Positions 820 through 51,084 of a stretch of 64,000 nt of DNA are shown here, piece by piece. Source of the DNA: Callorhinchus milii. Taxonomy: Eukaryota. The stretch is taken from positions 7,378,001 through 7,442,000 of the forward strand of contig NW_024704765.1 of the NCBI RefSeq assembly GCF_018977255.1. Reading direction: 5' to 3'. A program made the translations under genes and the position numbers. The first letter of the stretch is position 1. Each line of letters begins with the position of its first letter. The notes beneath the pieces were generated by a model. It searched no databases, had not been told where the DNA came from, and saw only the letters and a program-made list of their open reading frames with translations.

Positions 820-953
820 GGGGACTGGCAAGATGAGTTCTTGATTCTCAGCCAGATCAGCAATATGACGATAGAGAGGGACCCCTTTCTCTGCAGCACC
901 AGCCTTACAAACAGCCAGGGAAACGCCAAGAATCGCATTGGCGCCGTACTTAG
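820..953 (-). CDS. ENO1: Alpha-enolase coding exon (134 nt); gene continues off the left edge of the window
   Basis: Translates (S)[44 protein letters not shown], a classic enolase segment; AG acceptor at 954-955, GTAAG donor at 815-819. Confidence 0.96.
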
Positions 954-1610: not shown

Positions 1611-1680
1611 ATTTGTTTGGAGTTGCATCCATACACAACATCAGGTTGTCAATCTTCTGCTGTTCGACGACATTTACATT
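1611..1680 (-). CDS. ENO1: Alpha-enolase coding exon (70 nt)
   Basis: Translates NVNVVEQQKIDNLMLCMDATPNK(S); AG acceptor at 1681-1682, GTAGGT donor at 1605-1610; phases match flanking exons. Confidence 0.93.
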
Positions 1681-4293: not shown

Positions 4294-4352
4294 CTTCTTT
4301 AACAGGCCAGGTGCTATCGTTGTATTGATGTGGTCAACAGCTTTTAACACAC
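4294..4352 (-). CDS. ENO1: Alpha-enolase exon 4b (59 nt, canonical-like alternative)
   Basis: Translates (G)VLKAVDHINTTIAPGLLKK; CAG acceptor, GTAGGT donor; phase 1 in, phase 0 out. Confidence 0.92.
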
Positions 4353-4872
4353 CTGGAACAAACGAGCAAACCAATCATTGTGCATTCTCACACACATGCT
4401 CTGTAGGCACCAGTAGACATCCGGCCCAAATTGTTGCAATTATCTTTGCCAATTTTTCCCATATTGCTTGAGTTATTAATTTTTCCATCCAGCTTGGGTA
4501 CAGAAGGCCAAGCAGTCTTCAGTGAAGGTCCCAAATTGGCCATGATTCACAAGTGGAGGTAACAAAAAGATCCTGTCCTGATGCATCCAAACTTCCAGTG
4601 GAGATAGCAATGAGCCAATTTCTTCCACTAAACCAACTCCAATATAGTGCCCCAACTTTTATCCTCAGCTGAGGTCAACCAATTCAGAAAGTGTGTTTGG
4701 CCCAATAGGCTTGTGGGTGAGATAAATGCATTTGGCGTTATCAATAGGAAAAAAAAGCAATATTTGAAAGATCACATTGGGAATGAACAAAGTCTACTGA
4801 TACCCAACTCCACAAATTAGTCTGTAAAACACATGCTCTGCAGGTTAAGGTCACCACAGATGCACTCGTTAC

Positions 4873-4931
4873 CTGATTACATAAAGCAGGTCCAATGAAC
4901 ATGTTAATATACTTAACAGCCCTCGACACAC
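4873..4931 (-). CDS. ENO1: Alpha-enolase exon 4a (59 nt, duplicated mutually exclusive alternative)
   Basis: Translates (G)VSRAVKYINMFIGPALCNQ, homologous to exon 4b with identical length and phases; strong polypyrimidine tract plus CAG acceptor, GTAAC donor. Confidence 0.85.
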
Positions 4932-5380
4932 CTGCCAGAAAGGGAAACGAGACAGGTGGTTGAATTAAATAGAAGAAACATTGGGGGGGAAAAAGGTAAA
5001 ATAACACAGAATACCAACAGTCTAGAGTTAAAGAAAGGAAATAGCAGGAGCCCAAAGCACAGATGAAGAGCGATCACAATATGATTTCAGTCACTGCACC
5101 CTGAACCTCTGGAACTCTCTCGCCCCCAATCCCTCCGCCTTGCCCCCTTCCCACTTTCAAAACCCACCTAAAGACCTTCCTTTTTGATCCTGCTTATGGC
5201 CACCCTACCCCTTCCCTCTGGCTTGGGGACAGACTCTGCTACTGTTAAGCACTCCAGGGCGAAGGGCGCTATATAAATGTAAATTGTTGTTGTATGATAC
5301 ATCTATAGTCGATCCATTACTCAAAGTTCTGCAAGTGACAAATTGCGGAGTTCCAATGAATATCTGAAAGAAACGAGTTA

Positions 5381-5644
<264 letters not shown>

Positions 5645-11396: not shown

Positions 11397-11481
11397 CTTT
11401 ACCAGTGTACAAGTCTACTTCCACAGTGGGGTTCCCACGTGAATCCAGAATTTCACGGGCATGGATCCTCAGGATAGACAT
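11397..11481 (-). CDS. ENO1: Alpha-enolase first coding exon (85 coding nt)
   Basis: ATG at 11481; [28 protein letters not shown](G); acceptor 7 nt upstream of the ATG (AG at 11489-11490), GTCAGT donor. ENO1 rather than ENO2/ENO3 is assigned from synteny with CA6-SLC2A5-GPR157. Confidence 0.96.
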
Positions 11482-19900: not shown

Positions 19901-21281
19901 TATTTCCAAATCATGTCACGGGATCTTTAGCGTCTGCCTGAAGTGAAGGACACAGAACCTCCAGTTTGTTATCTCATCCAAAGCACGGCACCTCTGACAA
20001 AGCAGCGTTCCCCCAGTATTATACTGGTAATGTCAGCCTGGACACAAATTCTTGTCTCAATGTCTAGTAAGAGTCCATAGCCTCCAGACCCAGAGGCGAG
20101 AGCGCTGCCAACTGGCCTGGACAACTGGTGTACGGTTTCTGCACAACTCTTTTCCACTTTGGTGACAATATGAGTTTCAGGCCTTTCTGTAGGTACTCAA
20201 CTGAAAAACACACATTTGCTATTTCCCAAACATTTGGGGGCTTGTGACCATTTGAGGGAACGCTGAATAAAATACCTGTTCGATAACCTGAGTCAATTAT
20301 TACACTTTAACCACCTGGATTAAAAACTGTAAGAAACCGGTGCCCGAAATTTCTCAGGGGTCTTGAGGCCATTGTCTTTAAGTGTAAAAATTGGGGGAAG
20401 TTCATTCTCGATTTGGAAGTATTATTTCCGCTGTTCTTCAAACAAATTATCCGAATTTCTGCATGATCTTACATTTGAAGACAATAGTCTTAAGGCTAGG
20501 GCTAAGACCATGAGGAATTTTGGAACCTCAAGAGCCTCACTGACCTTGACTTTCTGCAGCCAACTCAATTTTTGGGTCTTTGAACTCAGACTGCAGGTTG
20601 ACACTGGGGGAGCGCTGCATTGTTGGAGGTACCACCTTTCGGACCAGACATTAAACCGAGGTCCCGTCTGCCTGGTCGGGTGGACGTTAAAGATCCCTTG
20701 TCAATCTTCGAAAAGAGAAAGGAGTTCCGACCAATGTCTTGGCCAACAATCCCCCAGAGAGAAAACCTGGCTGTGCAAACTGACTGCCACTTTCACCTAC
20801 AAATACATGGACCTGATGCTATCCTTGTGAAGCGCTTTGAGACATTTTGACAACGCGATGAGGCCCCAATAATGAAATGCAAGGATTAATATTATTATTA
20901 ATCTAATAATGGCATCCTGGCTTTGCGGCGATAAAGGCTTAAATCTACACTCCACTCACCTTGAAACTGTATCCCACAGAGCGTCGCGAAATAACACTTA
21001 CGCATTTGAATTCTTACTCTTTTTAGGCAAAGCTGTAATTTGGTTAGCGCAGCTAAAAAAAATCCAGAAATGACAGTTTCCATAACCATTTCTATCGAAT
21101 TTGCGGGAGCAAAAGTAGTACTTGAATAAACAATCTGCCACACCCGAGAGTAGATACTGTTACTTTAATTGACCTATCAATCCTATACTCTATCTGGGAC
21201 TCATACCCTTCCTGCTCACTGTCAGTCAGTGTACAGCAACAAAAACAGTCTGGCGTGTGCTAATCCCTTTATTCTGTTAAT

Positions 21282-21372
21282 ATGGAACGTTTGTGTTTGA
21301 AATCACTTGCGGGAAGAGCGTTAATTCTCCTCTGCATGTTCCAGTTCACACAAGGACACTGGACTTACCAAG
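21282..21372 (+). CDS. CA6: Carbonic anhydrase VI exon 1 (signal peptide and HWTY motif)
   Basis: MERLCLKSLAGRALILLCMFQFTQGHWTYQ(E): hydrophobic signal followed by the alpha-CA WxY motif; G|GTAAA donor, phase 1 matches exon 2. Confidence 0.85.
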
Positions 21373-22104
21373 GTAAAACAACTGTTCATTTTATTTTAAT
21401 GATTTAATTCTGTACAAAAGCTTAGTTGGAAGAGATGAGCAAACTTGCATTTTTAAAGCGGCTTAAGAATCGCCTACAAAAATACTCAATCGCTGCACTT
21501 CGAGACGTCCTCTCGACGTGAAAGTTGCAAGTATCAAATGCGGGTATTGTTTTTAAAATCAAAATTATTAATAGTAGTAAAATAATACTATAATAATGAC
21601 GATAAAAGTCAAAACGTGCCCGAGCCTTCACGCAAATTGTCTGGGCATTCTTTAACATGCTAATCATAAGAACAGAAGAATTTGCTGGGCAAAAGAAAAC
21701 CAAGGTCCATCCAGTTTGTCTTCCACCATCCTTGCAGTCGCATTGCACGTTATATCCGAAACTATATATTGAATCCCGAGATATTATTTCTATCTAACAG
21801 AAATCTATCTAATTTGTTCTTGAAAGAATCCACACTTTCTGCTTTCATCGTCTCCCGAGGGAGCCCGTTCCATACATTTACGACTCACTCACTGAAGTAG
21901 TGTTTCAGCATTAATTTTGTTACTGTAATAATCAGTATTAATCAGGAGGAATCATTGTGCTTTGGAAAATGAATTTCAACATTTCGCTGTGAGAACGGGT
22001 GAAAGAATGTGGCGGGCAAATGAAGATTGTCACAACTAAATGGTTCTGACCTGCTTTCACTTAACCATTGCCAACATGTTCTCCTGAGTGTTATTGTTTA
22101 TTAG

Positions 22105-22287
22105 AGGGCGACATGGATGAAGAACATTGGGAATCACAGTACCCAGCCTGTGCTGGTAAGCATCAGTCTCCCATCGATATCCAGAGGAAAAAAACCAAGT
22201 ACAACCCTCATCTTCCCCAAATACAACTAAGTGGTTACGATGCACATTATGAGGAACCCTTGAGATTAACCAACAACGGACATTCAG
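22105..22287 (+). CDS. CA6: CA6 exon 2
   Basis: (E)GDMDEEHWESQYPACAGKHQSPIDIQ...LTNNGHS(V): QSPID motif and the NNGHS proton-shuttle His. Confidence 0.96.
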
Positions 22288-23021
22288 GTACTGTATCTGG
22301 TCTCTGAAATTCTTAAGGGAAAACATAAGGTAAAAAAAAGGGGGAAAAAATATTTCTTTTACTTGGGAAATTGGTGACGAGGAGGAGGGCACAGTCTGAG
22401 GATTGTTCACAGAACAAACGAGAGAGAAGGAATGTTTTCATTCAGAGGCGTTGAGGAATTCACTCCCACAAGTGTCTCTTTGAACAGAAATCGTTCAAAA
22501 GGGAATTGAGTCGAAGGGAACTGAGCCGACATTAAAAGGATAATAAAGGGAAAGTGGGAGTATAATTGAGGGGCAATTTTTTTTAAACATGGGTGGAAGT
22601 AGGGAGGAAATGATGATTATTAAATATTAAAATGGCCTGTTTTGGGGCTGACATATATATTTTTTTGAAAACCCATTTTCAGGTCGCGTCGGAAGACCTT
22701 CTTCTTCGACCGTGCCTATGGCCACTTCCACCCCCTACCCCCCCACCACCCCTCCCGGACCGGTGTCGTGCTCCACCCTCTGGGATGCAACCCTGCCTGA
22801 GGGGCTCTGCGTAAATACAAGTTGTTGCTGTTGATGTCGAACATTTCTAGGTGTCCTATATTTCCAAAGGCGGGGGGGGGGGTGGGGGAGTTGATACGAG
22901 CTGTTACCCATTCAGAAATTGTTTAGTATTAAAATGACACGTGGATATCTAAGTGAAAACGATGTTACAGTATTTTTGCTCTTAACCATTAACTGTTTGT
23001 GTGTGTGTTTTGCTCTCGCAG

Positions 23022-23170
23022 TTGCTTTAGGTGTGCCGCCCAATCTCTTTATCAGCCACGGGCTACAGAATAAATTCACAGCGGTTCAAATGCACTTTCA
23101 CTGGGGTGGTCTGGACCTGGAGAGCAGTGGTTCTGAGCACACAGTGGATGGGATGCGATATATTGCAGAG
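23022..23170 (+). CDS. CA6: CA6 exon 3
   Basis: (V)ALGVPPNLFISHGLQNKFTAVQMHFHWGGLDLESSGSEHTVDGMRYIAE: zinc-binding HFH and GSEH motifs. Confidence 0.97.
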
Positions 23171-23229
23171 GTAACAGAAACCCCTTCAATGCCTACCCGG
23201 GAGGAGAATTATATTGTAATTTTAAATAA

Positions 23230-23526
23230 TAACCTCCGTTCCACCATCGCAGTCGGGCTTTGAGCCACTAAGCCCCGAAACTCTGGAACACTCTTCCTCT
23301 ATCCCTCCACTTTGCTATCCCTATCCCACCCCCCACCCCCACCAACCTTCCTCATCTTCAGGTCACAGCTGAAGACCTTCCTCTTTGACCGTGCCTTCGG
23401 TCACCTCCCCCACCTCTCCTCCTCCTTCTCCTCCCCCAAGGCTGAGTCGTGCTCCGCCACGGTCAAGTGCTCTAGGACGTTACCCTGCATGAGGGGCGCG
23501 GTGTAAAAGCAAGTTGTTGTTGTTGT
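23230..23526 (+). mobile_element. L2-type LINE 3' fragment
   Basis: Decayed ORF2 end (KLWNTLP...FRSQLKTFLFDRAF) followed by a stem-loop tail and (TTG)n; related fragments at about 5090-5293, 22675-22835, 34570-34745, 45100-45270 and 28330-28520 (-). Confidence 0.78.
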
Positions 23527-24647
23527 GGAGGGGAGAAATTCCATCTGGGTCTAGACTTGAAACGTTTAGAGCGTACAAGCTTCAGAGAGTTCTTAAACCC
23601 GGTCTTAATTTTCAAAACTGGGATTTTCCGTAGTTCTTAAAAGACCCTGGATTGAGTGTCAAGACCCAGACAGACAGCATTGTAGGAATAGCCCCAAACT
23701 TGCCTGCTCTGATACACGAGAACAAAAAAAAGGCTAAACCCAGACCGAAACGCAATGTCTTCCTCCAGGATTGCACAGGATGCTACTGTTTTGCGGAGGT
23801 TTAACCCCATTGAGCTTGGATTATGAACCACAAGCCAGTTCCGATTCCAACAGTAAGGAATTACTCACCATCGAGGAAGTTACCTTGTGTTTCTCAAAGG
23901 GAAAAGGTACCACTGTGGGGGAATGAACACTCCTCTCGATAACTTGTTATCAATGTCGCCTGATGGATTGTCAGCACTTGTCATCAGCGAAGGTAGTCAG
24001 CCCATCATCACTAAGGAATGAAATAACATCACCGGGCCATTTAATGAAAGAGAGCGAGCCTTAGTTTGTCCTTGACATTACATGACTCCTTCTCCCCTGA
24101 CCTTTACCAACCACCCATTTTGGTTACATCGCTGCTGGCATTATTATTGTCTATAGACGAATAGAAATTGCGAGTTAATTGACTGCTCCCTGTTTGGAAC
24201 AGGCAATCTGTGACCTTCATCAATAAACCTCGACGGGCAGCAATGCTAGAGTGCAAGGAATAAATCATTTATTTTCCTAAAGGCATTAGTATTTTACCGG
24301 GTTAGCACACTGCTAGTTGTATTCAAAACATTTCTCCTCCAATTTTACGCCCATGTTTTCTTGAAGGCAGCAGCTCATGTTTTTGCCCAAGCAGTAACGA
24401 CTTTGCTCAATGGCCATTATTCCGGTCTGTGACCAGATAGTCACCACAAAGATCATTCTCACCCAACCCCCACAACTCGAACGGTTCGAAAACACGGATA
24501 GTGATCAGGAGCAGGTTCCCTGGATGCTTCCATCCCCTTTCGCCAAAGTAAGATGCAGGAAACATGGGCGCTTTACCTAAAAGGGTAGCTCACAAGCCCA
24601 GGTAATAAAATCATTCCCTGACACTTTCTCTTTGGTTGTCTTCTCAG

Positions 24648-24743
24648 CTGCACATTGTTCACTATAATTCGGAGAAGTACAAGACCTTTGAGGAAGCGCA
24701 TGACAAAGAAGATGGATTGGCTGTCCTTGCATTTTTCTATGAG
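24648..24743 (+). CDS. CA6: CA6 exon 4
   Basis: LHIVHYNSEKYKTFEEAHDKEDGLAVLAFFYE: third zinc His and GLAVL motif; CAG/GT boundaries. Confidence 0.96.
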
Positions 24744-25540
24744 GTGGGTCTCCAGGCGTCCAGGAGTGATATAAAAGTCTCCGATGATGAGACGGTGATC
24801 TGACCCAAAGCAACAACGACTAGCATTTACACAGCGTCCTTCACAAAGACCAACCTTGGCACATCAATTAACATGGCTCCTTAACCCCACTAATGAGTAT
24901 TCTTCCTGCCAGCCAGTTGCTCACTGGGAGTTCCCACTCGGCCAAACTGTCCTCCTCTGGCTGGTATCATGTTTTACAAGAAAACACAGTGTGTAATACA
25001 GAGCATCGGAAATGATGAGGGCATAAGGAAAAAAAATAATCTTCCCATTTAAAGCCAAGCTGGGACTGCATTTGGATTGAAATCTGAACTGACATATTTC
25101 ATTGACCTGCACATTACACCAAACAGTTAAGTCTGATTAGGAGAGACCCACGGGGATGTGTCTGTACGTCGCATTGTAAAGCATTGTGGGCCTCGCTTGC
25201 AATTTACAAGATGGATCATGGGTCAGTAATTCCTGCATGGAATCTGGATCAAGATTCCACACGGGTTTGATATGGATTACAATGAAGTCATTTCGGGACA
25301 AGCTGATCCCTGGCTCATGGTACAATTAGATTCTGAACCTGCTGAAGAGTTAACAGGAGTCGATTGGGAAAGATCCCTGTGACACCACCCCCGCCCCCAC
25401 CCACCCCCCAGTGGTTAGTCTGCCCTTCCACTCCAAACGCAGTTCACACCCAGAGCAGAGTGGTCGAAGGGGATTCTAAAGGGATCACGCGTGAAGGAAT
25501 CCAGCTTAGCTACACAGCAAATTGGGACAACGATCATTGA

Positions 25541-25858
25541 GGAGTCCTGTAGCTCAGTGGTTAGAGCACTCGCTTTGTAAGTGAGAGACTTGAGTTCAAT
25601 TCCCGGCAGAGGGCGAAACCTTGGGCAAGTTTCCTTACTCCACACAGAGCCTAATAATATTCCCTCCAAAACCAAAAACAATAATAAATTGGTCATTTTC
25701 AATCCATGACTGTTTGTGGGACATTGCTGTGCGCAATTGGCTGCCGCGTTCGCCCACAAATATACAGTCAATTCACTTTACAGTATATTCTGTGAAGCAC
25801 TTTGGGACGTCCTCCCGACGTGAAAAGCGCTATATCAAATGCAAGGATTATTATTATT
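25541..25858 (+). mobile_element. Full-length tRNA-derived Deu-domain SINE (short, young-looking subfamily)
   Basis: tRNA-like head GGAGTCCTGTAGCTCAGTGG...GAGTTCAATTCC (A and B boxes), Deu-like core GTTTGTGGGACATTGCTGTGCGCAATTGGCTGCCGCGTT, 3' stem-loop and (ATT)n tail. Confidence 0.88.
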
Positions 25859-25959
25859 GAGACGGGCGACAAAGAGTTCATGGTGTGTACTTACCATCTC
25901 TCTGTGCTGTGGAAACCTGATGATACTTTCGGACTGATTCTTGGGTGGCTTTGTTGCAG

Positions 25960-26026
25960 GATGGTCATTTTGAAAATACCTACTACAGCGACTTTATCTC
26001 CAGCTTAGGCAAAGTCCGATACGCAG
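25960..26026 (+). CDS. CA6: CA6 exon 5
   Basis: DGHFENTYYSDFISSLGKVRYA(G); CAG/GTAG boundaries, phases consistent. Confidence 0.93.
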
Positions 26027-26161
26027 GTAGGTGAAACAACAACTTACACACACACACATATATATATATATATATTGTGTTGGGTAATGTCCCAGGGTGC
26101 TTTATTTTCCTGCAACCGTAGAATTCAGAAGCACTGTGTCTCTTTTCCTCTTCCATTTCAG

Positions 26162-26319
26162 GGCAGACGACTCAAATGCATCACTTAGATATCAGCACCA
26201 TGCTCTCGGATGACCTCTCGCAGTTCTACAGATACAAGGGATCTTTAACCACACCGCCTTGCTTTGAGTCTATAACTTGGACAGTCTTTGACACGCCGAT
26301 CAAGCTATCCCATAATCAG
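26162..26319 (+). CDS. CA6: CA6 exon 6
   Basis: (G)QTTQMHHLDISTMLSDDLSQFYRYKGSLTTPPCFESITWTVFDTPIKLSHNQ: GSLTTPPC motif. Confidence 0.97.
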
Positions 26320-29300
26320 GTAAATATGATCTGAATTGTTTGTATGTAAAATCTGTAAAATCTCAGTTGGTAGCAGTCTTACCAATAATAACAATAATAA
26401 TCCTTGCGTTTGATACAACGCCTTATCATGTCTTCGAGTCGTCTCAAAGCGCTTTGCAGGACACACTGCAAAGTGAATTGACTGTATATTTTGTGGGCGA
26501 AATATGGGTTAGAAAGTTGGCTTTCGTTCAAAGTTCAGTCTGATACTTCAGTGCAGTACTGGGGGAAAACATCGCGCTCTTGGAGGACGGGGCCTTCAGA
26601 CGAGAGAATGAACTAAGATCCCCATCTGCCTGTTCAGGTGGAAGTTAAAGATCCCGTGAAGCTGCTTGAAAAGAGAAGGGAATTCCTCTCTTGTCTTCTA
26701 AATCTCCCCCAATGCAACTGATCATTTATTTCAATGCTGTCGTGGGCTCTTGCTATGAGCAAAATGGTTGCTTCAAATACCGGAAATGACCTCTGAAGGC
26801 CTTTTTTAATGTTATACGTGTTATATATTCAAATTCCCACATACATACACATATATATATATATTTTAATAGAATTTTCACAACCCACTACCTTCCGACC
26901 AGGAGACACCTGGAGCAAAGTTGAGTGGGAATTACAGTGGATGACTCCAACGGTGGGAAAAGCTATGGCCGTTCTCCGCCTCTCTTTGTCTGTTTTTTTC
27001 GCAAAAAAAAATAAAATGAAAGATAAGGTCCTCAGGAGATAAGAGGGAATCGGCTGTTGACCCGCTTTACGACAGCAGGCGTTGAAATGAATTGTAATAC
27101 CGTTGCCTCGCTGCTGGAGGCGCTGCCGAGCTGAGCTCCCAGCTGTTGCCCGTTGTCAGCGGTCAGTGTTGCTTACAGCGCCGCCAGGTGGACATTGAGC
27201 AGTTCTGACCATCTTGAGCAAGTCACGTCATGACAAGGGATGGGCCCGATACGGTTGAGTTGTCCTCCATCGCTTCACAGGATCTTACTCCGTGCGTCAG
27301 CCCGGCCGCAGCGTCAGGCCGCTCGCCTCTGAGTCGGAGCGCTCCGAGACGCTATCCGGCGTGGAGGGGCGCTATAAAAATCCAAGTTGCTGTGGCTGTT
27401 GTTGTTGTTGTTGTTGGGTTCAAGCCCCCACGTCGGGATTTGCAATCACGTCGTCTAAGCTGACATGTCTCGGGTGAGACGTTAAATCGAAGCCCCATCT
27501 GCCCGTTCAGGTGGATGTTAAAGATCCCGTGGCGTAAAGAGAAGGGAGTTTTTTCTCTCTCCCGGTGTCAGGGCCAACGATCCCCCCAAATAGATTGGTC
27601 GCACACACTCCACGGCTGTTCGTTGGACGTTGCTGCGTGCAACCGGCTGCTGCATTTCACCCAACAAATATACAGTCAGTCGACTTTACAGTATATCCTG
27701 CGAAGCGATTTGAGACGTCTCAACAACGCGATAAGACGCTATATCAAATGCAAGGATTATTATTACTCTAAAGGGTAGCGACTGTGCTTTTGAGGGCGAG
27801 TGTGGCAGCCAGTTTACTACACGCAGCAATGTCCCACAAACAGCCATGAAGGGAATCAATTTTTTTCTGGAGGATTGTTGGCCGGGAAACCGGGAGATCT
27901 TGGCCCAGATTTAGCACCAGACAACAGGCGGAGTTAGCAATGGCCACAAATCTCTTCCGTTTTCCACAGAGCAATTTACTCCACTGGTGGTAACGATTGC
28001 ATAAAAAAAACACTCAGTGTTTCAGGTTAAAAAAAAGTGTGGCCTTTTTTTAAACTGGTATAAATACTATAATTTAATGTTGGTTTCTTTTTTTTTAAAT
28101 GCACTTAAACGGAATTACATAAAGAATGCAAATAGTTTCTAGGCTCTGTTTCCCCCCACCCCTCTCTCTGTGCCCCTCTTAAGTGGTTGCATGCACGCAA
28201 AGCAGAACAAAATTCTTTTGAATGGAGTGTTCTCTGCAACCACCTGTAAGATTCCCCCCTGCCTGCCAGTTCCTGTTACCAATCCTACAACACTATTTAA
28301 CTATCTAAGTTTTCCACAGTGACCGGGGTCACAACAACAACAAATCGTATTTCTATAGCGCCTCTAACATCAGGAGGATGTCTTGAGGTGCTGGCGGCTG
28401 GATTCGGGAGGGGTGGCGGTGTAGGGGTGGAAGGATGACTGAAGCCACGTTCAAAGAGGTAGACCTTGAAGGTGAGGGAAGAGATGAGTTGACGGGACTC
28501 AGGGATGGAGTCCCAGAGAGTGGGGTCTGTCAATCTTCCAGAATAATTGGGTCTTTTCACTATTTGTGAGACTGTGCCGTGTGTAAAGTTCCCGTGTTTG
28601 CCTAGAAATACAGTCACTACACACGTCAGTAATTGCCCGTGAAACATTTTTGCTTAGGTTTGATTTTACCACTGCAACGACAACCACTTGCGGTTGTATA
28701 GCTCGCTTCACACAGGGCAGAGTCTTGGGAGCGTTTACCAGTGTTGGACCCTGTCTATAGTCGGTTTAATGCGAAGATTATTATCATACTCTCGAACCCT
28801 CAATTCTTCCATCCAGCTCAGGCCCACAGTACTCATTCCTGCTCTCAATCGGCCTGTCTACTTTGCACCAGGCGGCTTATCTTACCTCCCCTCCAGGAAG
28901 CAGAACCTCCTAGTGATGCCATCCCAGAACAAGAAACCTACACCTCCCCTCTCCGGTACATGGATCCAATGTAGTTGCCTTCCACAGTGCCAGTTCGGAC
29001 TCTCCTACATTATTACAACAACTTGCACACGTTGCAGTTCGGGAGACTGAGAGAAGCTTTGGAACAACCCTAGTTTCAACTCAGTGTAGACTCGGGTGAC
29101 TAGATTTTGTAAACCAAATCCGGGGACGCAGAGACATACAAAAAATTTAACTCACCACAATTCCTGATGCTGGCAGTACAGTTACTTGGAGAAGTGTGTT
29201 GGATTAATGCCTGTGTTTCTCTGATTAATAAGTGTATGTGCTTTAGAATGCTGTTGTTGTTCTTGGTCAGTTTGTGGCTGAACTCAAGACGGGGCAAATT

Positions 29301-29612
29301 TGGCCCCAGTAACACAATACCTCATTGCCCCAAAAATCAGGGACGTATGGTCACCCTAGAGTAAAGCAGAGCTCAAGCCTAGGATCAGTTCTGGTTTGTG
29401 TGACTCGGTCACGCACCAGGCTGTATGATAATAATAATAATTGATATACCATCTTATTGCGTCATTGAGACGTCTCAAAGTGCTTCACAGAATTTATTAC
29501 CTGTATATTTTGTGGGTGAAATGTTCACATGTCCGTATGTCCACCAAACGAGCCGTCGGTGGCCGATATTGATCGGTAAAGTGCATTTCCTTTTTCTTGT
29601 TGTGTTTTACAG

Positions 29613-29736
29613 ATCCGACTGTTGGAAAACTCTGTGCTGGATTGGGAGAACAAGACTCTGAGAAACGATTACCGTCATGCCCAGCTCGTGAACGACAGAA
29701 CCATAGAAGCAAGTTTCCAAACAGATCTGGTGAGAG
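29613..29736 (+). CDS. CA6: CA6 exon 7 (end of the CA domain)
   Basis: IRLLENSVLDWENKTLRNDYRHAQLVNDRTIEASFQTDLVR(G); phase-1 donor chosen to match the next exon. Confidence 0.9.
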
Positions 29737-30476
29737 GTGCGGTAATAACATATAATACTGCAGAGTGAAAAATGTACTGTATGATGTGCTGACACATTGC
29801 GAGACAGAGTTGGTATCGTGGAGATGTCCTATTTGATTATAGTAGTGAGATGGGGGGGGCAGGGGGCTGGGGTTGGGGGGCTGGGAGGTGGGCTAATGAG
29901 GGGGAGACCTACTGGGTTTGACATCTCCTTTGCTGAGCTTCCAACTCCAGCGCTCTGAGATGCCGTCCCTTGTGAATGGCGCAACATAAATACAACTTGC
30001 TGCTGTTGCTGAAACAGTTTTGCCCCCAAAATATTGGGATCCATTGGGCCAGTACGTGGCGCTAGCAAACCTGCTGCCATGCAGGTCTCATGAGAACATA
30101 AGAATTAGCTAGGCGAAAGAAGACCAAGGTCCATCCAGTTCACCTTTCACTATCCTGGCAGTCGCTTGCACATGGGGTGTCCCAAATTCTATAATAAGAA
30201 CAAAAGAATTAGTTTAGATGAAGGAAATCCTTCGACACATCTGATCTCATCCTTCCAGGATACCCACCCAACCATTCTCCCATCACGGCGTCAAGATATT
30301 TTGCTTACATGAGTCCCAATGTCGTGGACTCAGCCACCCTTCCTGGCAACTCTGTTCCGGTCGTTACCTTCCGTGTCAAGAAAAACTTCCTGGTGTCTGT
30401 CCTGAAATTGCTTCTTGTCAGTGTGAAATGGACTCATTTAGAATGTGCCTCTGTGTCCTCCAATTCCGTGACTTAG

Positions 30477-30569
30477 GTTCCTGCCACCTGGACGAAATCA
30501 ATGAGAAGCTGGAAAAAATTGAAACGATTTTGCACAAGTTCCAACTAAACGCGGAAGCTGGCCAGGCAG
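30477..30569 (+). CDS. CA6: CA6 exon 8 (amphipathic helical linker)
   Basis: (G)SCHLDEINEKLEKIETILHKFQLNAEAGQA(G): heptad-like hydrophobic pattern; TAG acceptor, CAG|GTGAG donor. Confidence 0.85.
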
Positions 30570-31575
30570 GTGAGATATACGGCAGGATTTCCTAACCATC
30601 TCAGACGATTTTCGCAGCCAGAGGTCTCAAGGTTTCTCTGCAGAAGGTCGTGGACTGGCTTCACCATACTAGGTTTAAGGTAGTGATACTTTATGCAGGC
30701 AGCTTGTGATCCACAGTAAGTGACCTCAGTAGTGAAGCTGCTGAGCTGGAAATCAGCCACTATTTTCGCATGGGAAGTTGTGTGGTCAGTGCCCAAAGCA
30801 GAAAGTGCCACAACTGACGTAAAGGACACCCGCACTGAAATCTACTAAATCAACAGCAACAACTTGCATTTAGATCCATATATATGTAGGTGGCGCTAGC
30901 AAACCTTCATGCCGGACGGGGTCTCGGAGGGCTTAAGGCGTTGTATGTATCCCGCGAAGCGCTTCGAGACATCTCGGCGACATGGTAAGGCGCTCTATCA
31001 AATGCAAGTGCTATTATTATTATTATTATTATTATTGAAATGCACACTCCGGGAACCAGTCAGCCACTAGAATTAGCCTGTGATGTAACTCATAGGAGAG
31101 AGCTAGAGAGAGAGAGAGAGAGAGACAAATCAGACCTGGCGGCCGTTGGTGTAATTTAATGCCGTTCCTTGCTTCCTCCTTAAGGTGGCAGTCAAACAAG
31201 TCACCCTTCATCAGGAAAATCATCCACATTCACCGCATGTAAAAGTTTTCCCCTCAAGTAAAAATTGTCCTGGAATCTACCCAGCGGTAGAAGTTCTTGT
31301 TGTTGGTCATATGCGTCGCAGCTGTTTGGGGCAAGTTGCTATGCACAAATTGGCTGCCACGTTCCCCCTACCAAATACAGTCACTACACTTTACGGTAAA
31401 TAATAGCAATAATTCTTGCATTTGATATAGTGCCTTTGAGACCTCTTCGAGACGTCTCAAAGCGCTTCGCAGAATACGCGGTAAAGTGAATTGACTTGTA
31501 CATTTTTTTTGAAAAGAGAACAAATCGGTTACAAGTTGGCCATTGATGATGTATTTTCTTGATGGTTTCCGAAAG

Positions 31576-32192
31576 GCATCGAGTTGGCTTCGCACCCCGC
31601 CTTCCACTTCTCGGAGGGCAGACGAGAAAGCTACGTTGAAATCCGAGCCCTTCGCAGTATGGATCTGCGTTCCTTCAGCGTGTGCATGTGGATCAGGATA
31701 AAGGATTCCCGGTCAAAGATACTTCTGTCCTACGCCACCAAGGGCAGTGACAATGAACTGGTGATCTCTGTGGGTCTGGATTGGGGGCTATGGATCGGAG
31801 GCCACTTTGTGAACATCGGGTTTCACTTCAACTCCAAAGACTGGGTCCACTACTGCCTGACCTGGAGATCTCAATCCGGATCTGCGGAAATGTGGATTAA
31901 CGGATTGTCGGGAAAGGAGAAGCGGATCAAGAGAGGGCACGTCCTCAGGAAGGGTGGGACGCTCTTACTTGGTAAAGACCAGGATGGTTTCGAGGGCATT
32001 TTCTCCGACGTCTTTGTCGGCGACATGACTGCCGTTAACATGTGGGATTATGTACTCCGCCCCGCAGAGATCCGAGAGTTAATGGAGTGTAAACACCGGT
32101 GGAAAAAGGGGAATGTTATAGCTTGGGGGAAGAGTGCTGTGACCCTTTTCGGTGGAGTGAGGGTTGAAGATGATAACAGTTGTCTTGGGTGA
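31576..32192 (+). CDS. CA6: CA6 exon 9, pentraxin domain, ending in TGA
   Basis: ORF 31584-32192 has SFSVCMW, LSYAT..DNEL, the pentraxin signature HYCLTWRS, LGKDQD and VNMWDYVL; in frame with exon 8; total CDS 1578 nt (525 aa). Confidence 0.95.
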
Positions 32193-35200: not shown

Positions 35201-35582
35201 CTAAAGAGAAAAGAGAAAAAAAAAGTTATTTCATGACAATAATAATAATCCTTGCATTTCATCTAGCGCCTGATCAAGTCGTCAAAATGTCTCAAAGCGC
35301 GTCACAGTGATTTAATGCAAGATGTAGTGACTGTGTATTTGTAGGCAAACACGGCAGGCAATTTAGACAGAGTATTGTACAAAAAAAACAGCCTCGATAT
35401 TAACAGATCGTTTGCCTCATGGCTTTTTGTGGAACTTTGCTATAAGCAAAATGACTGCTGCATTCACGGCAAAGATAGTCACCTACGGGAGTAATTTCCC
35501 TAAAGCTCCGTGTGACATCGTGACACAATCGGGTTTCTGTGACAACCCGAGTTCTGTCTTTCAATAGCGGAAAAATACGAAC

Positions 35583-35684
35583 CTGAAGTTTTAGAGCCAC
35601 TGTCAGTACTGCAGAAAACAAGCCGCAAATAGCGAACCCAATCAGCAGAAGAATCTTACGGCCGGCTGCATCCACAATGAAGAT
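35583..35684 (-). CDS. SLC2A5: GLUT5 coding exon
   Basis: IFIVDAAGRKILLLIGFAICGLFSAVLTVALKLQ: MFS GRK loop. Confidence 0.94.
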
Positions 35685-35849
35685 CTGCGTACAACAAAGA
35701 TTGAGGTATATCTTGGTGAAATTCGCGCAAGACTCAACCCGGAATAGCAAGTGAATGCACAAAAAAGCAGAGTCACGTTTCCAGTACGGTATTTGCTGTA
35801 GTGGATTTCTTAATTAAATTAGTTAAGAAATAGGGGGAAAATGAACCCC

Positions 35850-36062
35850 TAAGGCCTCTGGAATGCACTGTCTGAAAAGGCGGTGGAAACGGATTCAATA
35901 ACAACTTTCAAAAGGGAATTGGAGAGTTACTTGACAAGGAAAAATTTGCAAGGATAATGGGGAAAGAGTCGGGGAGAGGGACTGATTGGGTAGTTCTTCC
36001 ATAGAGCCAACACCAGCACGATGGGCCGAATGGCCTCCTTCTGAGCTACAATAATCTATGAT
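35850..36062 (+). mobile_element. CR1-type LINE extreme 3' fragment
   Basis: TGGAATGCACTG...TTCAAAAGGGAATTGGA...GATGGGCCGAATGGCCTCCTTCTG; related fragments at about 8885-9010 (-), 21666-21900 (-), 30095-30430 (-), 39655-39790 (-) and 54735-54850 (-). Confidence 0.75.
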
Positions 36063-36237
36063 TAAACATTTACCATTACTACTATTGTTTTATTCTTATT
36101 AATAATAACGCTAACATAATAATAATAATAATAATAATCCTTGCATTTGTTATAGCGCTTTTCACGTCGGGAGGATGTCCCAAAGCGCTTCACAGAATAT
36201 ACTGTAAAGTGAATTGACTGTATATTTGACAACTTAC

Positions 36238-36348
36238 TGCTGCTATGGTCATGATGACATTGATGGTGCCCGTTCCGACAGTGATAAACTGAATGCTATT
36301 TTCGTAGACTCCAGCTGTTCGAAATATAGAGTCTGCGTAGTAATATAT
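36238..36348 (-). CDS. SLC2A5: GLUT5 coding exon
   Basis: IYYYADSIFRTAGVYENSIQFITVGTGTINVIMTIAA. Confidence 0.94.
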
Positions 36349-37065
36349 CTAGGAACACAATCGCAGTATCAACGGCAGATGAAAAACTAATAGAGAGAAA
36401 GGCCTTTCACTCCCGCAAGATTTTGCAAGGTTATTATTTTCGCTACCTTGATAAATTAGCCGTGCAGAATTTATCGGTGGTAGCGTGGTGGTGCACTTCA
36501 CTGTCAAAGGTACCATCTTTTGAATGGCATTAAATAAGAACCCAACTGCCTGCAAACTGTGAATGGAGCATCACCTAGCGTCTCGGTCAATGGTCAATAG
36601 TCCTCCCGTTTGTGGCTGTTTGTGGAACCTTGCTGTGGCCAAACCAGCTCCCCGTTTATGTCTACAAGAAGATGAATAACCCTTGCATTTGATACAGCAC
36701 CTTATCACGTCATTGAGACGTCTCAAAGCGCTTCACACAAAGTACTGCGAAGTGGATTGACTGTGTGTTTTGTGGGCGAAACGCCTTACGACCAGGTGAA
36801 ATGCCGTGAGATGCTTTGATGTTGTATAAAAATACTTTCTCTCTCTCTCTCTCGCTCTTTCTTTAGACCGTCTTTGAAAATACAGCGAATCGACTAAGAG
36901 TTTTGACTGGACAGATGAGACAATGACTCGAAGGAACAAAGATTGCTCTTGCGAGGAGTGACTCAAAAGGAGCATCAACAGTTACTGGTGTATTCTTTAC
37001 CCACCCATGAGGAATGAGTGCCTCATTCTCTTGCCCTGTATCTTTGCGTCATTTTCGTGACTTAC

Positions 37066-37253
37066 CGCATTGACGCCCGAAAGCTGCTGTCCCATGTTCA
37101 GCATAATGACTGTAATCAGCTGCCAACGCAATGCCTTAAGTGTGAACAGATTCTTCACTGTCAAAAGCCCGTCTGCCTTCTCAGATTGATCTTCCAATTG
37201 CATTTCCTCTATTTCATTCTCCACATTGTCGTAGCCTCTCAGTCTTTGTAAGG
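37066..37253 (-). CDS. SLC2A5: GLUT5 coding exon
   Basis: (A)LQRLRGYDNVENEIEEM...LRWQLITVIMLNMGQQLSGVNA: QQLSG motif. Confidence 0.95.
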
Positions 37254-37807
37254 CTTCACGGCGATAAAATCAAACAACGCTGGTTATAATATTGCTCACT
37301 TTGCCTTTGACCCGACGCACTATAACGTCGCAAAAGCGCTTCGCAGCAAATTGCTTTCAAGTGCGGTGACTGTGCGTTTGCAGGGGAAACACAGCAGACA
37401 TTTTGCGAACAGCGAGAATTCACAAACAATTTGTCTGGGCGATTGTTGGCCAGGATTCCAGGTGGCCAAATAATCTAAATAGTCCCCCCATCCACCTGCT
37501 TGCACCCTAAACCCTCTAATATTCCTCTATTTCAATCATCTATCCAATTCCCTTTTAAAATAAGTGTGAGGTTTCTCCTTAAATCCCAACCGTAGATCCC
37601 AACCACCAGCTCAGGTGTGGATCCCTGCCTGTCCAGCATCTTGGGACGTCCTCCTGACGTGAAAGGCGCTGTGTGTAAATGTAATGTGTTGTTGTGGTTG
37701 TTGTTGCTGTTATTGTTGCTTCCGCAACGGTTGGTGGCAGAGAATTCAGCAGGTTCCTTGCAATCACCTGCAGCGATCCTTTCATTTAAACCCTCCGTGT
37801 GGTTTAC

Positions 37808-37933
37808 CTGCCCTGGCTTTATCTACGCTGCCTTTCTGAATCAACAGGAATCTTGGACTCTCAGGCAAAAGAGGCAATAGGATGACCTGCAGGATGGCAG
37901 GAATCCCTGTCATTGCCAGCATCAGCGGCCAAC
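37808..37933 (-). CDS. SLC2A5: GLUT5 coding exon
   Basis: (G)[41 protein letters not shown](A): PESPR motif. Confidence 0.95.
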
Positions 37934-38327
37934 CTGCCAACAAAACAGAAGCATTAAGAATCCTTTGTGGGAAACTGAGTCATTCTCAAACATCTGAATT
38001 GGGAGGGGAGGAAGGTGGCGGGAGAGTTAATATTCTGGTATTAGGATTTACGGTCAAATATTAGTATTTACGGTCATAGAAAATACACCTCACCCCAAGC
38101 AGCCGTTCTGTTTTTGCACGGGGTTGTGTGGGTGACTGTCAAGCAACTTGTTTGACAGTGAAGCAATGCGGTGGGTGGGGGGGGCGAAGAAAGTGAATTA
38201 TAATTAATCTGATCCCAATCATTCCCTATGATATAGAGGCTTTAACATTAAAACAGAGTCAGTGAGATCAATCGTATATTCCTGTCACTGCCCTGGATGG
38301 GGTTAAATGACAACAGCTTGCATTTAT

Positions 38328-38612
38328 ATAATAATAATAATCCTTGCATTTGATATAGTGCCTTATCACGTCGTTGAGACGTCTCAAAGCGCTTCACAGA
38401 AAATATTGTAAAGCGAACTCACTGTATATTTTGTGGCCAATTGCACACAGCAGTGTCCCACAAACAGTTGCGGATTGAGTGACCAACATTTTTCTTTGAG
38501 GGATTATTATTCCCGGAAAAGCTATCCGCCAATTGACTCCTGTTCCTACTTACTGCTAGGTAAACAGAGGCGTGTGGAGTCAGGAGATTTCCTTAAGATT
38601 TTGCCCCACCCG
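38328..38612 (-). mobile_element. 5'-truncated Deu-domain SINE (long subfamily)
   Basis: Tail, core and internal segment present; tRNA head mostly missing. Confidence 0.8.
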
Positions 38613-38740
38613 GGAAAGGAAAAATAGGCTTGGAATGCTGCACAGTTGGATCCGAGCAAGGGAGAGGAAGGAGTTGATCATACTGCCACCAATTGAACTA
38701 GGCTGACACACAGTCTAAATATACTGAGAATATTCCATAC

Positions 38741-38893
38741 CATCATCGTTGGCGAGCAAGAATCTTAATCCGAGGATCTGAGCAAACAGAATTCCAATTG
38801 TAATGAACAACTGAGGAACCACACCAATTCCTCCTCGAAGCCTCTTTGGTGCAATTTCCCCCACGTACATTGGGACAACATTGGCAGCGACGC
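38741..38893 (-). CDS. SLC2A5: GLUT5 coding exon
   Basis: (G)VAANVVPMYVGEIAPKRLRGGIGVVPQLFITIGILFAQILGLRFLLANDD(G). Confidence 0.95.
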
Positions 38894-39173
38894 CTAGACG
38901 CATAAAAGACAGAAATTATAATAAATAACAATAATCCTTGCATTTGATACAGCGCCTCATCACGTCTTTGAGAGGTCTCAAAGTGCTTCACAAAATAGAT
39001 TGTAAAATGAATTGACTGTATATTTGTGGGTGAAACATGGCTGTAAATTGCGCACAGCAGTGTCATGGATTGAAGAGACCAATTTATAAAGGGAGATTGG
39101 TCAGGCATAGCACAGTAGTGGAGTGTGGGAATGACAGGGTAACGTTTAGTTCAGACTGCCTGGGTTTACGTAC

Positions 39174-46610: not shown

Positions 46611-46808
46611 TTATTCTTCAGTTACAAAGGGTGAAGGCAGTGAGGTGCTCGCCTGACGGCTGGTGATCTTAGACTCGCTTTCCATGCTCTTGTCATCCTC
46701 GTTCCTGCAGAAGCTGCACAGAGAGGAGATCAGGCGCAGGCGAATGGGCTTGGTGCAAAGTATGAACATGATACAGTTTGCAGCTCCTTGGAAGGTGTTT
46801 CCGACTCC
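46611..46808 (-). CDS. GPR157: GPR157 last coding exon (with stop)
   Basis: GVGNTFQGAANCIMFILCTKPIRLRL...TEE*: TM7 of the cAMP-receptor-like GPCR; CAG acceptor. Confidence 0.93.
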   Translation of the reverse strand, partial: GVGNTFQGAANCIMFILCTKPIRLRLISSLCSFCRNEDDKSMESESKITSRQASTSLPSPFVTEE

Positions 46809-47621
46809 CTGTGAAGTTACAGCAAAAAAATTAAACATCAATAAGCTAACTGCAGAAAGGATGTTAGCCTGAAGTAATAAAGCGTTTATCTGCCCCAGAT
46901 CTTTGCACTGCACTAATCCCTTGTGCCATTTCAGCAGCAACTTGCATTTATTTAACACCCTTCGCATGAAAGAAATGTATTGGGGCATGTTACAGAATGA
47001 GAGAAAATTAGAGATGAACATATTATGAAGGCCAACATGGCAGCTAACTTGCAAACAGCAATGATTGGTCAAAATTATTAGAATTTGGAAATCAATTTGA
47101 ATGAGGAGGGAATAATAAGCGTAAAGTATTACAAACTGAGCCAAGCTGACAACATCGAACATCATAATGCCTAAGAACTGATGAACCTGTGGGTTACCCT
47201 GAAACGGTGGCAGAAATGCAGGCAATAGACATTCAAGAACTTGAGGGAGAGTAGAAAAAGTTATAAACACAAAATAGACACTGTACAATAATATTTATTT
47301 CCCTGCCAAAACATGGCTATTAGAGCTCGTGTTTTCCTGTAAATAGCCAAAGCTAACACAAAATAACAAACTAACATTTATTGTTTGTAAACACAAGAAA
47401 GCCTTGTGCTTATCTATTAAGCACACTTTGTTTCCATTCCTTTCTGTGAGCAGTAACTCTCTAAAGTATCTAAAATTAGACACGACTGATACTTCACCAT
47501 AACTGAAGGTGCATTCAAACAAACAACATGTGGTGAAATATAACCTTGGGCAAATGGATTGAGTGAGTGTCTTGCACTGGCTGCTAGATACTACTCATTC
47601 ACGAGTGGGTGAGTTCCCATC

Positions 47622-47955
47622 AATAATGATAATGATCCTTGCATTTGATACAGCGCCTTATCGGGTCTTTCAGACGTCTCAAAGGGCTTCACAGAATATA
47701 CTGTAAAGTGAATTGGCTATATTTTGTGGGTGAAACGCAGCAGACAATTGCGCACAGCAGTGTCCTACACAGTCGTGGATTGAGTGACCAATTATATATA
47801 TTTTTAAAAGAAATTATTATAAGTGATTCGCCAATCGATTAACAACCTGGTTCCCACTGTGGAGTAAGGAAACTTGCACAACGTTTCGCCCTGCCTGGGA
47901 ATCGAACCCAGGTCTCTCGCTTGCAAGGTGTGTGCTCTAACTACTGAGCTACAGA
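47622..47955 (-). mobile_element. tRNA-derived Deu-domain SINE in a GPR157 intron
   Basis: Head, core and tail on the minus strand. Confidence 0.83.
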
Positions 47956-48007
47956 TCTGTTTTCTTGCGTCTTTTCCCATTCCAATTGGTAAAATCAGTG
48001 TACTCAC

Positions 48008-48202
48008 GTGTAGCGTCACCAGCAATCTATTCTCCACGACAGGAGAGCCACACAAGGTCAGGATGAACCTCACAGTACTCCATATCCGCAGCAAGATGAA
48101 TATGATGGGGATGAGGGTGAGCTTAAGGTCTGCGCTTGAAGATCTGCTGTGGTAGCTGGAACTGCTGGATAAGATGGGGCGATACTCCGATAAAGCTTCG
48201 TG
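48008..48202 (-). CDS. GPR157: GPR157 coding exon 3
   Basis: HEALSEYRPILSSSSSYHSRSSSADLKLTLIPIIFILLRIWSTVRFILTLCGSPVVENRLLVTLH; AG/GTGAG boundaries. Confidence 0.94.
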
Positions 48203-48516
48203 CTGGATGAGAAAAAATATTCACACAATTATACAATCAAATGATTTTTTTCAGCACGTTAGCGGGCCATTCAGTCCGAGGTGTCTGTGCCTGAAAGATC
48301 TCTGTTTAGTTCCACCCCCCTTTCACCCTCCCTCGCATCTTATATTTTATTTTCCCAACTATTCAGATTGCTTTGAAAAGCCATTCTGCTTCCCACGGTC
48401 AAGAGAGATCTCGAATGGCACATGATGTCAACCATGTGGGAACTCTACTCTTCATTAAGTGTGTTCCCATGGGTTAGTTAGCACAACTACTTATAAGCAA
48501 GCCCAGCAAGCAAATT

Positions 48517-48838
48517 AATAATAATAATAATAATAATCCTTGCATTTGATATAGCGCTTTTCACGTCGGGAGGACGTCCCAAAGCGCTTCACAGAATATA
48601 CTGTAAAGTGAATTGACTGTATATTTGTGGGCGAACGCGGCAGCCAATTGCGCACAGCAATGTCCCACAAACAGTCGTAGATTGAAAATGACCAATTTAT
48701 TATTGTTTTGGGTTTTGGAGGGATTATTATTAGGCGTGTGGAGTAAGGAAACTTGCCCAAGGTTTCGCCCTTCCTGGAATTGAACTCAGGTCTCTCGCTT
48801 GCAAAGCGAGTGCTCTAACCACTGAGCTACAGGACTCC
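48517..48838 (-). mobile_element. Full-length Deu-domain SINE (short subfamily)
   Basis: Near-identical reverse complement of the 25541-25858 copy. Confidence 0.88.
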
Positions 48839-49138
48839 ACAGGTAACACCAATAATCCTTGCACTTGACATGCACAAACAGCCATGAAGTGAACGACTGA
48901 TGCATCTGGAGGATTGTTGGCCAGGACACCTGGATCAACACCCTTCTCTTTCAAGGCCTTTGAGACGTCTCGAAGACGTGATAAGACGCTATATCAAATG
49001 TAAGTATTATTATTATTAAATATCCACTTGAACAGACAGGAAACAGCTTGTCTCATGGAACGCTCCTGTGACACTGACTTGTATGAGCTCAACCTCGTCA
49101 ATCACAATAGGCCTTGATCACGAGAGATTTTCCCTTAC

Positions 49139-49352
49139 CGCTCGGTTGATGTGTTTCTTAATGCGGATGTATAGAATTGGCAGGGTGATGTAGGCAATGA
49201 ACTCCCAGATTTTGCCTGTCAGCAACATCCACAAGAAGTGGTCTTCTGCCAGGATACTGACCCAACACCAGCCCACGGACACATCGGATGCATCGTAACC
49301 TATCTTCCTCAGGCTGACGGCAGCAACAGTGATGACGAGAGGCACCGACCAA
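49139..49352 (-). CDS. GPR157: GPR157 coding exon 2
   Basis: (S)WSVPLVITVAAVSLRKIGYDASDVSVGWCWV...TGKIWEFIAYITLPILYIRIKKHINRA. Confidence 0.95.
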
Positions 49353-50580
49353 CTGCCAACACACAAAAAGGTTGACGTTCATCAGTTATTTGGGTTGACA
49401 AAATAGTTTTTCTAGCAAAGTGATGGCATTGCTGGTGTCTGGCTAATAGAACAAGTTTGGCGATTTGCCTTTCCTGCAGGGAATCCCACTGAGTCACACA
49501 AACTCGATTGACCCTGACTTCAAAGGGGATTCTCAGGATGGAGCTGAGGTTGGCACAGTGTGTGTGGGAAGAGGTTGTGAAATTTCCCTGCAGGCCCTGT
49601 CAACCCATCCCCCACCATATCACTGCCTTCAGAGAGAGAGGCAATGACGGAGCAGAAAAGTTTCATCTGAGCAATTCCAACTGTCCACAGCTATCTTTGA
49701 TTGATACGGCTCATTAAGCCTGCGCTGGTGTTTTTCTTCACACTAACCGAACCCACTCCCCCATATCCTTTAATATTTATTCAATTATTCATGTGTAGAA
49801 ACCCTTCACACTGGGAATCCAAACAAGACTGGAGTTTCGCACAAATGTCACCTATGCATGGAAGTTTCGAGTTGTCTGAAATGGAATGCGCACTCTCAAC
49901 AACAACAACAACTTGGATTTATATAGCGCCCTCCACGCCGGACGGCGTCTCAGAGCGCTTTACTCTCCTCAGAGGGAAACACCTTGCTTACATAAGACCA
50001 GCTAAAACCAAATAGCTTCCCATTGAGAGCACTGTCTGACGAGCTACTTTTTGCTTGTCCAACTTGGCCCACCCTCGCTGTTAGGGCTTTTGCTTACAGG
50101 ACCGACAGGAGCTGAGTGGGAAGAGTCATTAGTTCCAGTGACCTAACTAGTTGGCCTGTCATTAGCAAAGCCTTGGTGTCCTGCAGACCTGCCTTAGCTC
50201 AGGAACCGCGACTACTGAAGATTGATATTCCATAGCCAGGCATCCCCAGCCCCTAGGATAGTCACAAATTGGTCATCAGACACCTCGACAAGTGCAGGTT
50301 CGAATCCTGGCTAGGGTGAACGGCCTTCACACCCTTCCTGTGAACGCTTATACAGTTTCGCCCACAAAATGTACAGTCAATTCACTTTACACTGTATCCT
50401 GTGAAGCGCTTTGAGACATCTCGAAGACGTGATAAGGCGCTGTATCAAATGCGAGGATTATTATTGCGACGTGGGGTTAAATGAAAGTAAAAACGTAGCG
50501 ACACAAACGGCGGCAAGACGACTCGTACGTAACAACACTCGGGTCAAAAAGCAAGCGTCGCTTCTTAAAAGAAAGCTTAC

Positions 50581-50954: not shown

Positions 50955-51084
50955 GACGATTGCAATCTTCTTTCACCCCCCCTCCCCTCCCCACCCCACC
51001 CCCCCGCCTTAAAGTAAAATGATGAGAGAAAAAAAATAACACACAATTCTCAAGAGCACATTTAACTAAGTAGATTCTCCAAAT

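Follow-up and report, generated by a model that had tools for sequence, protein, structure and literature searches.

The window (the whole stretch of DNA that was analysed, 64,000 nucleotides from Callorhinchus milii) carries on its minus strand the first part of an enolase gene, ENO1, the last six exons of which lie past the window start. Within this part is a pair of similar exons, 4a and 4b, flanked by constitutive ones:

11397..11481, minus strand: first coding exon (ATG, 85 coding nt), with an Enolase_N match; contigs join it to the 96-nt exon (with a loose end at 5606)
5509..5604, minus strand: 96-nt constitutive exon, 5' of the pair (translation, genome search, spliced contigs)
4873..4931, minus strand: exon 4a (59 nt), which encodes residues 61-80 in the alternative isoform (RefSeq isoform X1, P0122); spliced contigs in runs X2, X3, X7 and X9
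4294..4352, minus strand: exon 4b (59 nt), which encodes residues 61-80 in the canonical-type isoform (RefSeq isoform X2, P0121); spliced contigs in runs X1, X3, X4, X5 and X6
1611..1680, minus strand: 70-nt constitutive exon, 3' of the pair (translation, spliced contigs)
820..953, minus strand: 134-nt constitutive exon (translation, genome search)

The coordinates, 59-nt lengths, AG/GT ends, phase and both peptides given in an earlier, sequence-only reading of this DNA were all exact on rechecking. The two exons share length, phase and type of splice site, and are identical at 34 of 59 nucleotides and 9 of 20 residues. Either exon alone between exons 3 and 5 leaves the frame open. Including both gives a stop at codon 83 (V-C-stop), and skipping both gives a stop at codon 71, within exon 5; the exon length is not divisible by three, so that splicing errors lead to early stops. 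The likeness of the pair was compared with that of 162 open-frame candidates of the form AG-59 nt-GT on both strands of the window: 4a against 4b has a BLOSUM62 score of 35, while the next unrelated score is 7. Searches with tblastn over 21 kb of the gene found neither a third copy of exon 4 nor any other duplicated exon. The tandem duplicated, homologous exon 4 pair in C. milii ENO1 is real.

Translation of exons 2-3-4a-5-6 is identical to the first 148 residues of P0122, and the version with 4b to the first 148 of P0121. Over these 148 residues the two isoforms are thus the RefSeq predictions X1 (4a, XP_042199606.1) and X2 (4b, XP_042199607.1) for C. milii, both named "enolase 1a (alpha)". 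In a tree of 32 rows with exon 4 removed, the C. milii protein is separated from gamma (97/94) and, weakly, from beta (76/88), and the alphas do not form one group. The tree therefore leaves the alpha group unsettled, and the identity as ENO1 rests on synteny and database naming, which both bear out the original assignment. The Pfam matches upstream of ENO1 are to a carbonic anhydrase (22898-32189), an SLC2A-type sugar transporter (35403-37266) and a GPR157-like seven-helix receptor (50580-50969); we take CA6, SLC2A5 and GPR157 to be the gene order beside human ENO1. As synteny markers, the transporter exons span 35400-39150 and the receptor exons 46611-50972, both on the minus strand. On the plus strand, at 20333-32192, carbonic anhydrase exons precede a long pentraxin exon (31566-32189, E 8e-38), an arrangement that presumably corresponds to the CA6-pentraxin fusion of non-mammalian vertebrates. 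Outside exon 4, the branch of P0121 and P0122 is long, at 0.17 where the median is 0.045, and residues such as C95, A98-T99-P100 and C287 are unusual.

Expression was followed in assembled contigs from 8 of 14 listed runs (8 samples from 3 studies, the runs being coded without tissue names). The runs carry no RNA label on record, and their RNA origin follows from the contigs being spliced. Three runs contain 4a only, four contain 4b only, and one contains both. Contigs continuous through exons 3-4a-5 were found in runs X2 (depth 1393.7), X9 (667.7) and X7 (60.3), and contigs continuous through exons 3-4b-5 in runs X6 (235.9), X5 (138.1) and X4 (80.8); in all six the depth of the non-used exon is zero. 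Run X1 has the joint from 4b to exon 5 only (depth 1103.8), and run X3 has both forms, 4b at depth 29.1 and 4a at 7.69. Exon 4a was detected in all three studies and 4b in two. Both exons are expressed, and they switch between samples near-completely. Spliced transcripts of exon 4a, whose absence had been named as part of what would refute the proposal, are present in four runs (X2, X3, X7 and X9). Among the joints listed for the eight runs none has both exons in or both out, with 16 joints not displayed and with contigs tending to drop rare forms; the exclusivity seen in contigs is for this reason a qualitative one. The suggestion of either-or splicing agrees with these results, in that each exon occurs alone between the same flanking exons and both or neither would be out of frame. 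The translations, contigs and RefSeq predictions likewise uphold the proposal that ENO1 makes two subunits differing at residues 61-80.

We next consider how widely the pair is distributed. Of 314 retrieved enolases with a readable exon-4 segment, 76 are of 4a type; the database entries used here are mostly predictions. A six-residue diagnostic score is bimodal, with 237 proteins scoring 0-1, one scoring 2, and 76 scoring 5-6. The 4a type is held by sharks, rays, bichir, paddlefish, teleosts, lungfish, caecilians, frogs, a salamander, snakes, birds, marsupials and placentals. A region search with residues 52-92 gave 49 candidates, of which the bichir was the sole addition. The C. milii exons fall with their own types: 4a matches on average 14.9 of 20 residues in the 4a set and 10.7 in the 4b set, and 4b matches 13.5 in the 4b set and 7.1 in the 4a set. 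Residue invariance was assessed on one sequence per genus, chosen by us (42 genera for 4a, 32 for 4b). The 4a type shows no variation at G61, V62, R64, K67, Y68, A76 and Q80, with F72 in 41 of the 42 genera and C78 in 39, and K never occurs at position 71. Twelve genera have both forms, and of the 66 pairs among them 48 show greater similarity in 4a than in 4b and 8 the opposite, the pairs being non-independent. Three gene models contain both exons, and all have 4a first.

ENO2, ENO3 and lamprey enolase each have a single exon 4, to which 4b is similar and 4a is not. Among 22 beta, gamma, lamprey and other rows (21 named and one unnamed), the single 4a type is an entry named beta-enolase, which clusters with eno1a and is probably a misnamed eno1a. 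An unnamed protein beside the shark beta-enolases in the tree, P0294, was dropped, being equally close to lamprey (87%) and shark (86%). We infer that 4b is the ancestral-type exon, and that the duplication occurred after ENO1 split from ENO2 and ENO3 and before sharks split from bony fish. The presence of the 4a peptide in ENO1 from sharks to mammals is in keeping with the jawed-vertebrate age suggested for the switch. Against general loss of the exon, or its decay through stops, stands the 4a-type segment conserved in 42 genera. The teleost eno1a entries have both forms, and the 4a type is absent from the 15 listed members of the eno1b cluster (145 members), a weak hint that 4a may have been lost in eno1b after the teleost duplication. 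The Swiss-Prot alpha-enolase of Xenopus laevis, P08734 (P0233), is the 4a form and not the canonical one; given this entry, 4a may be a major form in some other species.

The two isoforms have 434 residues each and differ at 11 of residues 61-80. A model of the 4a isoform has a mean pLDDT of 86.5 and a TM score of 0.92 to human ENO1 (2psn), with a helix at 62-79 and pLDDT of 85-94 within the block; the human 4b-type segment is helical in 2PSN (PMC5740500). The two exons thus encode the same structural element, helix 62-79, as modelled for 4a and as seen in 2PSN for the human 4b type. Searching the PDB with the peptides gave no matches for 4a at E 10 and 13 for 4b. The fixed changes in 4a are mostly at polar or variable positions, where exposure is a proxy derived from 35 distant enolases and not from coordinates. 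With R64 and Q80 in all 42 genera and K71 in none, 4a is without lysines 64, 71 and 80. Lactylation occurs at K64 and K71 of human ENO1, where mutation of K71 alters RNA and CNOT6 binding with activity unchanged (PMC12801394); K80 is listed as an inhibitory succinylation site (PMC13004432). C. milii 4b has T71 rather than lysine, so that only the loss of K64 and K80 applies here, and the argument from K71 is limited to bony vertebrates.

From the model and these substitutions, we lean towards the reading that fold and catalysis would survive the swap, and that helix 62-79 would present a different outer surface (K64R, K in place of the acidic residue at 67, H/N68Y, F at 72, C at 78 and Q at 80), thereby altering lysine acylation and partner binding. 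A changed regulatory surface is the most likely effect, and its main rival is altered kinetics. According to this rival the swap tunes catalysis or stability in the manner of PKM1/PKM2, the 4a helix altering loop closure, Km, Mg2+ dependence or dimer stability. It gains from the position of exon 4 directly after segment 39-60, a flexible loop region with low model confidence, from the sizeable changes T/L72F and V/I78C, and from P65 in the 4a of mammals and rays; the enolase paralogues also differ in affinity for PEP (as cited in PMC11030362). We nevertheless think it unlikely, though worth serious attention. The positions that are always hydrophobic in the 35 distant enolases (62, 65, 66, 69, 73 and 77) remain hydrophobic in both C. 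milii exons. To our knowledge, residues 61-80 include no catalytic residue. Mutation of K71, in the same helix, leaves the activity of the human enzyme as it was (PMC12801394).

The introns around the pair contain several features that could control the choice:

4934..5021, minus strand: AG-free pyrimidine-rich stretch before 4a, 88 nt; candidate repressor-binding tract (sequence)
4829..4840, minus strand: copy 1 of a 12-nt repeat with GCATG (4836-4832), 37 nt after 4a (sequence)
4816..4821, minus strand: ACTAAT, 52 nt after 4a (sequence)
4392..4403, minus strand: copy 2 of the 12-nt repeat with GCATG (4399-4395), 47 nt before 4b (sequence)
4792..4806, minus strand: 5' arm of a long-range stem of 15 bp predicted within the 520-nt intron (folding; a lead only)
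4404..4418, minus strand: 3' arm of the predicted 15-bp stem (folding; a lead only)

The AG-free stretch is 88 nt long before 4a, against 29-38 nt before the five other exons examined. We take GCATG to be an RBFOX-type motif and ACTAAT a QKI-type motif. The exact 12-nt repeat carrying GCATG occurs only twice in the window, and one GCATG is without the leading T of the full motif. GCATG and ACTAAT occur together in none of 17,701 other 60-nt windows of the gene and in 0.1% of the minus strand of the window, for motifs that were picked post hoc. RBFOX, QKI and PTB act according to position, and by their rules such an arrangement would promote inclusion of 4a and hinder that of 4b in heart, muscle or neurons. 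The chances are about even that factors bound at the motifs shortly after 4a turn it on in tissue of heart or muscle type and also repress 4b, with the pyrimidine tract silencing 4a elsewhere. Heart is named in the human tables; for C. milii, use in heart or muscle is a prediction.

Two other ways of keeping the exons apart were rejected. Steric exclusion by a close branch point needs a branch point of the second exon less than 50 nt from the donor of the first, with a zone free of AG up to the acceptor; the intron is 520 nt long, and the AG-free zone before 4b is 32 nt. Incompatibility between U2 and U12 sites is discounted by the donors GTAAGC, GTAACG and GTAGGT, which are U2-type by consensus.

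Exclusion by RNA structure was also considered. Here the 15-bp stem would loop out about 370 nt of intron, unite the two GCATG motifs and couple the choice of 4a to the rejection of 4b. The stem (4806-4792 with 4418-4404) has a predicted energy of -26.7 kcal/mol and pair probabilities of 0.99-1.0 for 13 pairs, its strength was matched by only one of 200 dinucleotide shuffles, and the two 12-nt repeats flank its base. Against this, it is the best of six duplex tests, an equally strong helix occurs in 18 of 120 windows of equal length from the same DNA, and the splice sites are still about 120 nt apart with the stem formed, compared with the steric limit of under 50 nt used in PMC5740500. We regard this account as doubtful; it is compatible with control by tissue factors and does not exclude it.

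An 11-nt copy of exon 4b sequence forms part of a small hairpin some 200 nt after the exon (4093-4070, minus strand). Its pairing with exon 4b was no better than shuffles, and nor were four docking-type duplexes (8, 35, 38, 69 and 72 of 100 for the five). Also after 4b there is a possible cryptic, frame-shifting exon of 47 nt (4154-4108, minus strand), with a pyrimidine tract, an AG and a strong donor; a contig of run X3 covers this stretch at depth 15 at 4123, and a splice joint to it is absent among the joints listed. The ENO1 introns further contain high-copy interspersed repeats, at 1760-1930 and 5120-5300, with very deep contig cover.

The 991.5-Mb assembly yielded one canonical enolase locus and one weak ENO4-like match, and ENO2 and ENO3 were not found in it. 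Neither was triosephosphate isomerase, an essential enzyme whose gene we take to be the neighbour of ENO2 in human, nor a second CAMTA locus. The single CAMTA is on the ENO1 contig, so that CAMTA2, presumably the neighbour of ENO3, is absent too. PELP1 is present, on a 322-kb contig, and the 200 kb around PELP1 and two profilin loci contain no enolase match or recognisable ENO3 neighbourhood. A profilin and cGMP-kinase-like segment occurs twice, inverted and about 50 kb apart, at G000:C28:2.05-2.12 Mb, either as a duplication or as an assembly artefact, and the profilin on C31 is likewise doubled. One could suppose that ENO3 (and ENO2) disappeared from this lineage and that the 4a isoform serves as its muscle enolase, with splicing replacing the paralogues. 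This would fit the single canonical locus, the recovery of PGK by the same type of search, and the two samples in which 4a is the sole assembled form at high depth. The missing neighbours count against it: since they are absent as well, the absence of ENO2 and ENO3 is uninformative, their loss is unproven, and unassembled regions explain it better than gene loss. Sharks, moreover, have kept beta-enolase alongside 4a. We consider the replacement very improbable. The original idea of isozyme diversity by splicing rather than by the ENO1/2/3 paralogues is similarly unsupported, given that sharks and humans have the exon pair plus separate beta-enolase genes and that the neighbours are missing here.

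The event is already catalogued in human. The supplement of PMC8373072 lists ENO1 as event 69: the 4a-type exon is at chr1:8870825-8870883 and its partner at 8870452-8870510, each of 59 nt, with peptides for both exons as proteomics support and Gnathostomata as last common ancestor. PMC5740500 predicted the human 4a type to be a novel mutually exclusive exon, included to different degrees between tissues (adjusted P 8.4e-5); its Gini value is 0.93, compared with 0.01 for the canonical exon, and the tissue columns, which are ambiguous, name heart and kidney. Table S2 of PMC9741552 marks the ENO1 event as tissue-specific in heart, the isoform not being specified; to judge from the Gini values, the heart-enriched human isoform would be 4a. 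In all three, ENO1 appears in tables and is absent from the main text as far as this was accessible. That 4a is a functionless copy, decaying or noisy, as its minor, restricted use in human (PMC5740500) and its absence from the listed eno1b members might suggest, is hardly credible and is refuted by the conservation and expression results, namely 4a as sole assembled form in three of eight runs, conservation in 42 genera that is tighter than that of 4b, and a human peptide (PMC8373072).

No functional study of the exon swap was found in a literature search that left subscription journals and most supplements outside its range, and in this respect the description of the switch as little characterised holds. 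Exon 4a is not mentioned in the accessible parts of PMC11030362, PMC10940350, PMC2881024 and PMC11978760, in the text and two of the three supplements of PMC4494069, or in the main text of PMC7561204, whose supplements may list it; the supplement of PMC11296937 has the canonical ENO1 entry only. A 2026 review (PMC13004432, in part) describes ENO1 with 12 exons and MBP-1 as the single variant mentioned.

Taken together, ENO1 carries a tandem exon 4, the copies of which are in all likelihood spliced one at a time. The choice is probably set by tissue-specific splicing factors, and messages with both exons or neither are probably removed by nonsense-mediated decay. A bolder and more tentative reading, which we hold to be possible but not probable, is that ENO1-4a is a hidden fourth glycolytic enolase subunit in jawed vertebrates, including humans. 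It would have been under tighter selection than the housekeeping exon since the shark divergence and would take over ENO1 output completely in some tissues, swapping the K64/K71/K80 face for an invariant R64-K67-Y68-F72-C78, switching off acylation-controlled moonlighting and making a new partner site. ENO1 is heavily studied, and a second form of residues 61-80 would be missed by antibodies, peptides and modification studies directed at the canonical helix. To what was known, the window adds support from the earliest-branching jawed lineage, near-complete switching between samples, and the stronger conservation of 4a.

The RefSeq predictions X1 and X2 for C. milii describe the same two isoforms as the window, by automatic annotation and without analysis of use or function. 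Human event 69 shares with the C. milii pair the gene, the 59-nt exons, residues 61-80, the upstream position of the 4a type and the diagnostic residues. It differs in the intron between the exons, which from the coordinates is 314 nt in human and 520 nt in C. milii, and in usage: 4a is the sole assembled form in some C. milii samples. The ENO1/ENO2/ENO3 system likewise provides tissue-restricted enolase subunits, but from separate genes rather than by exon choice within one gene. A parallel in kind is PKM exons 9/10 (PKM1/PKM2), which are also homologous, mutually exclusive exons of a glycolytic enzyme, listed in the same catalogue (PMC8373072) and switching in heart. The PKM exons are 167 nt long and change allosteric binding, whereas the ENO1 swap concerns one helix of the N-domain, with no known ligand site or known effect.
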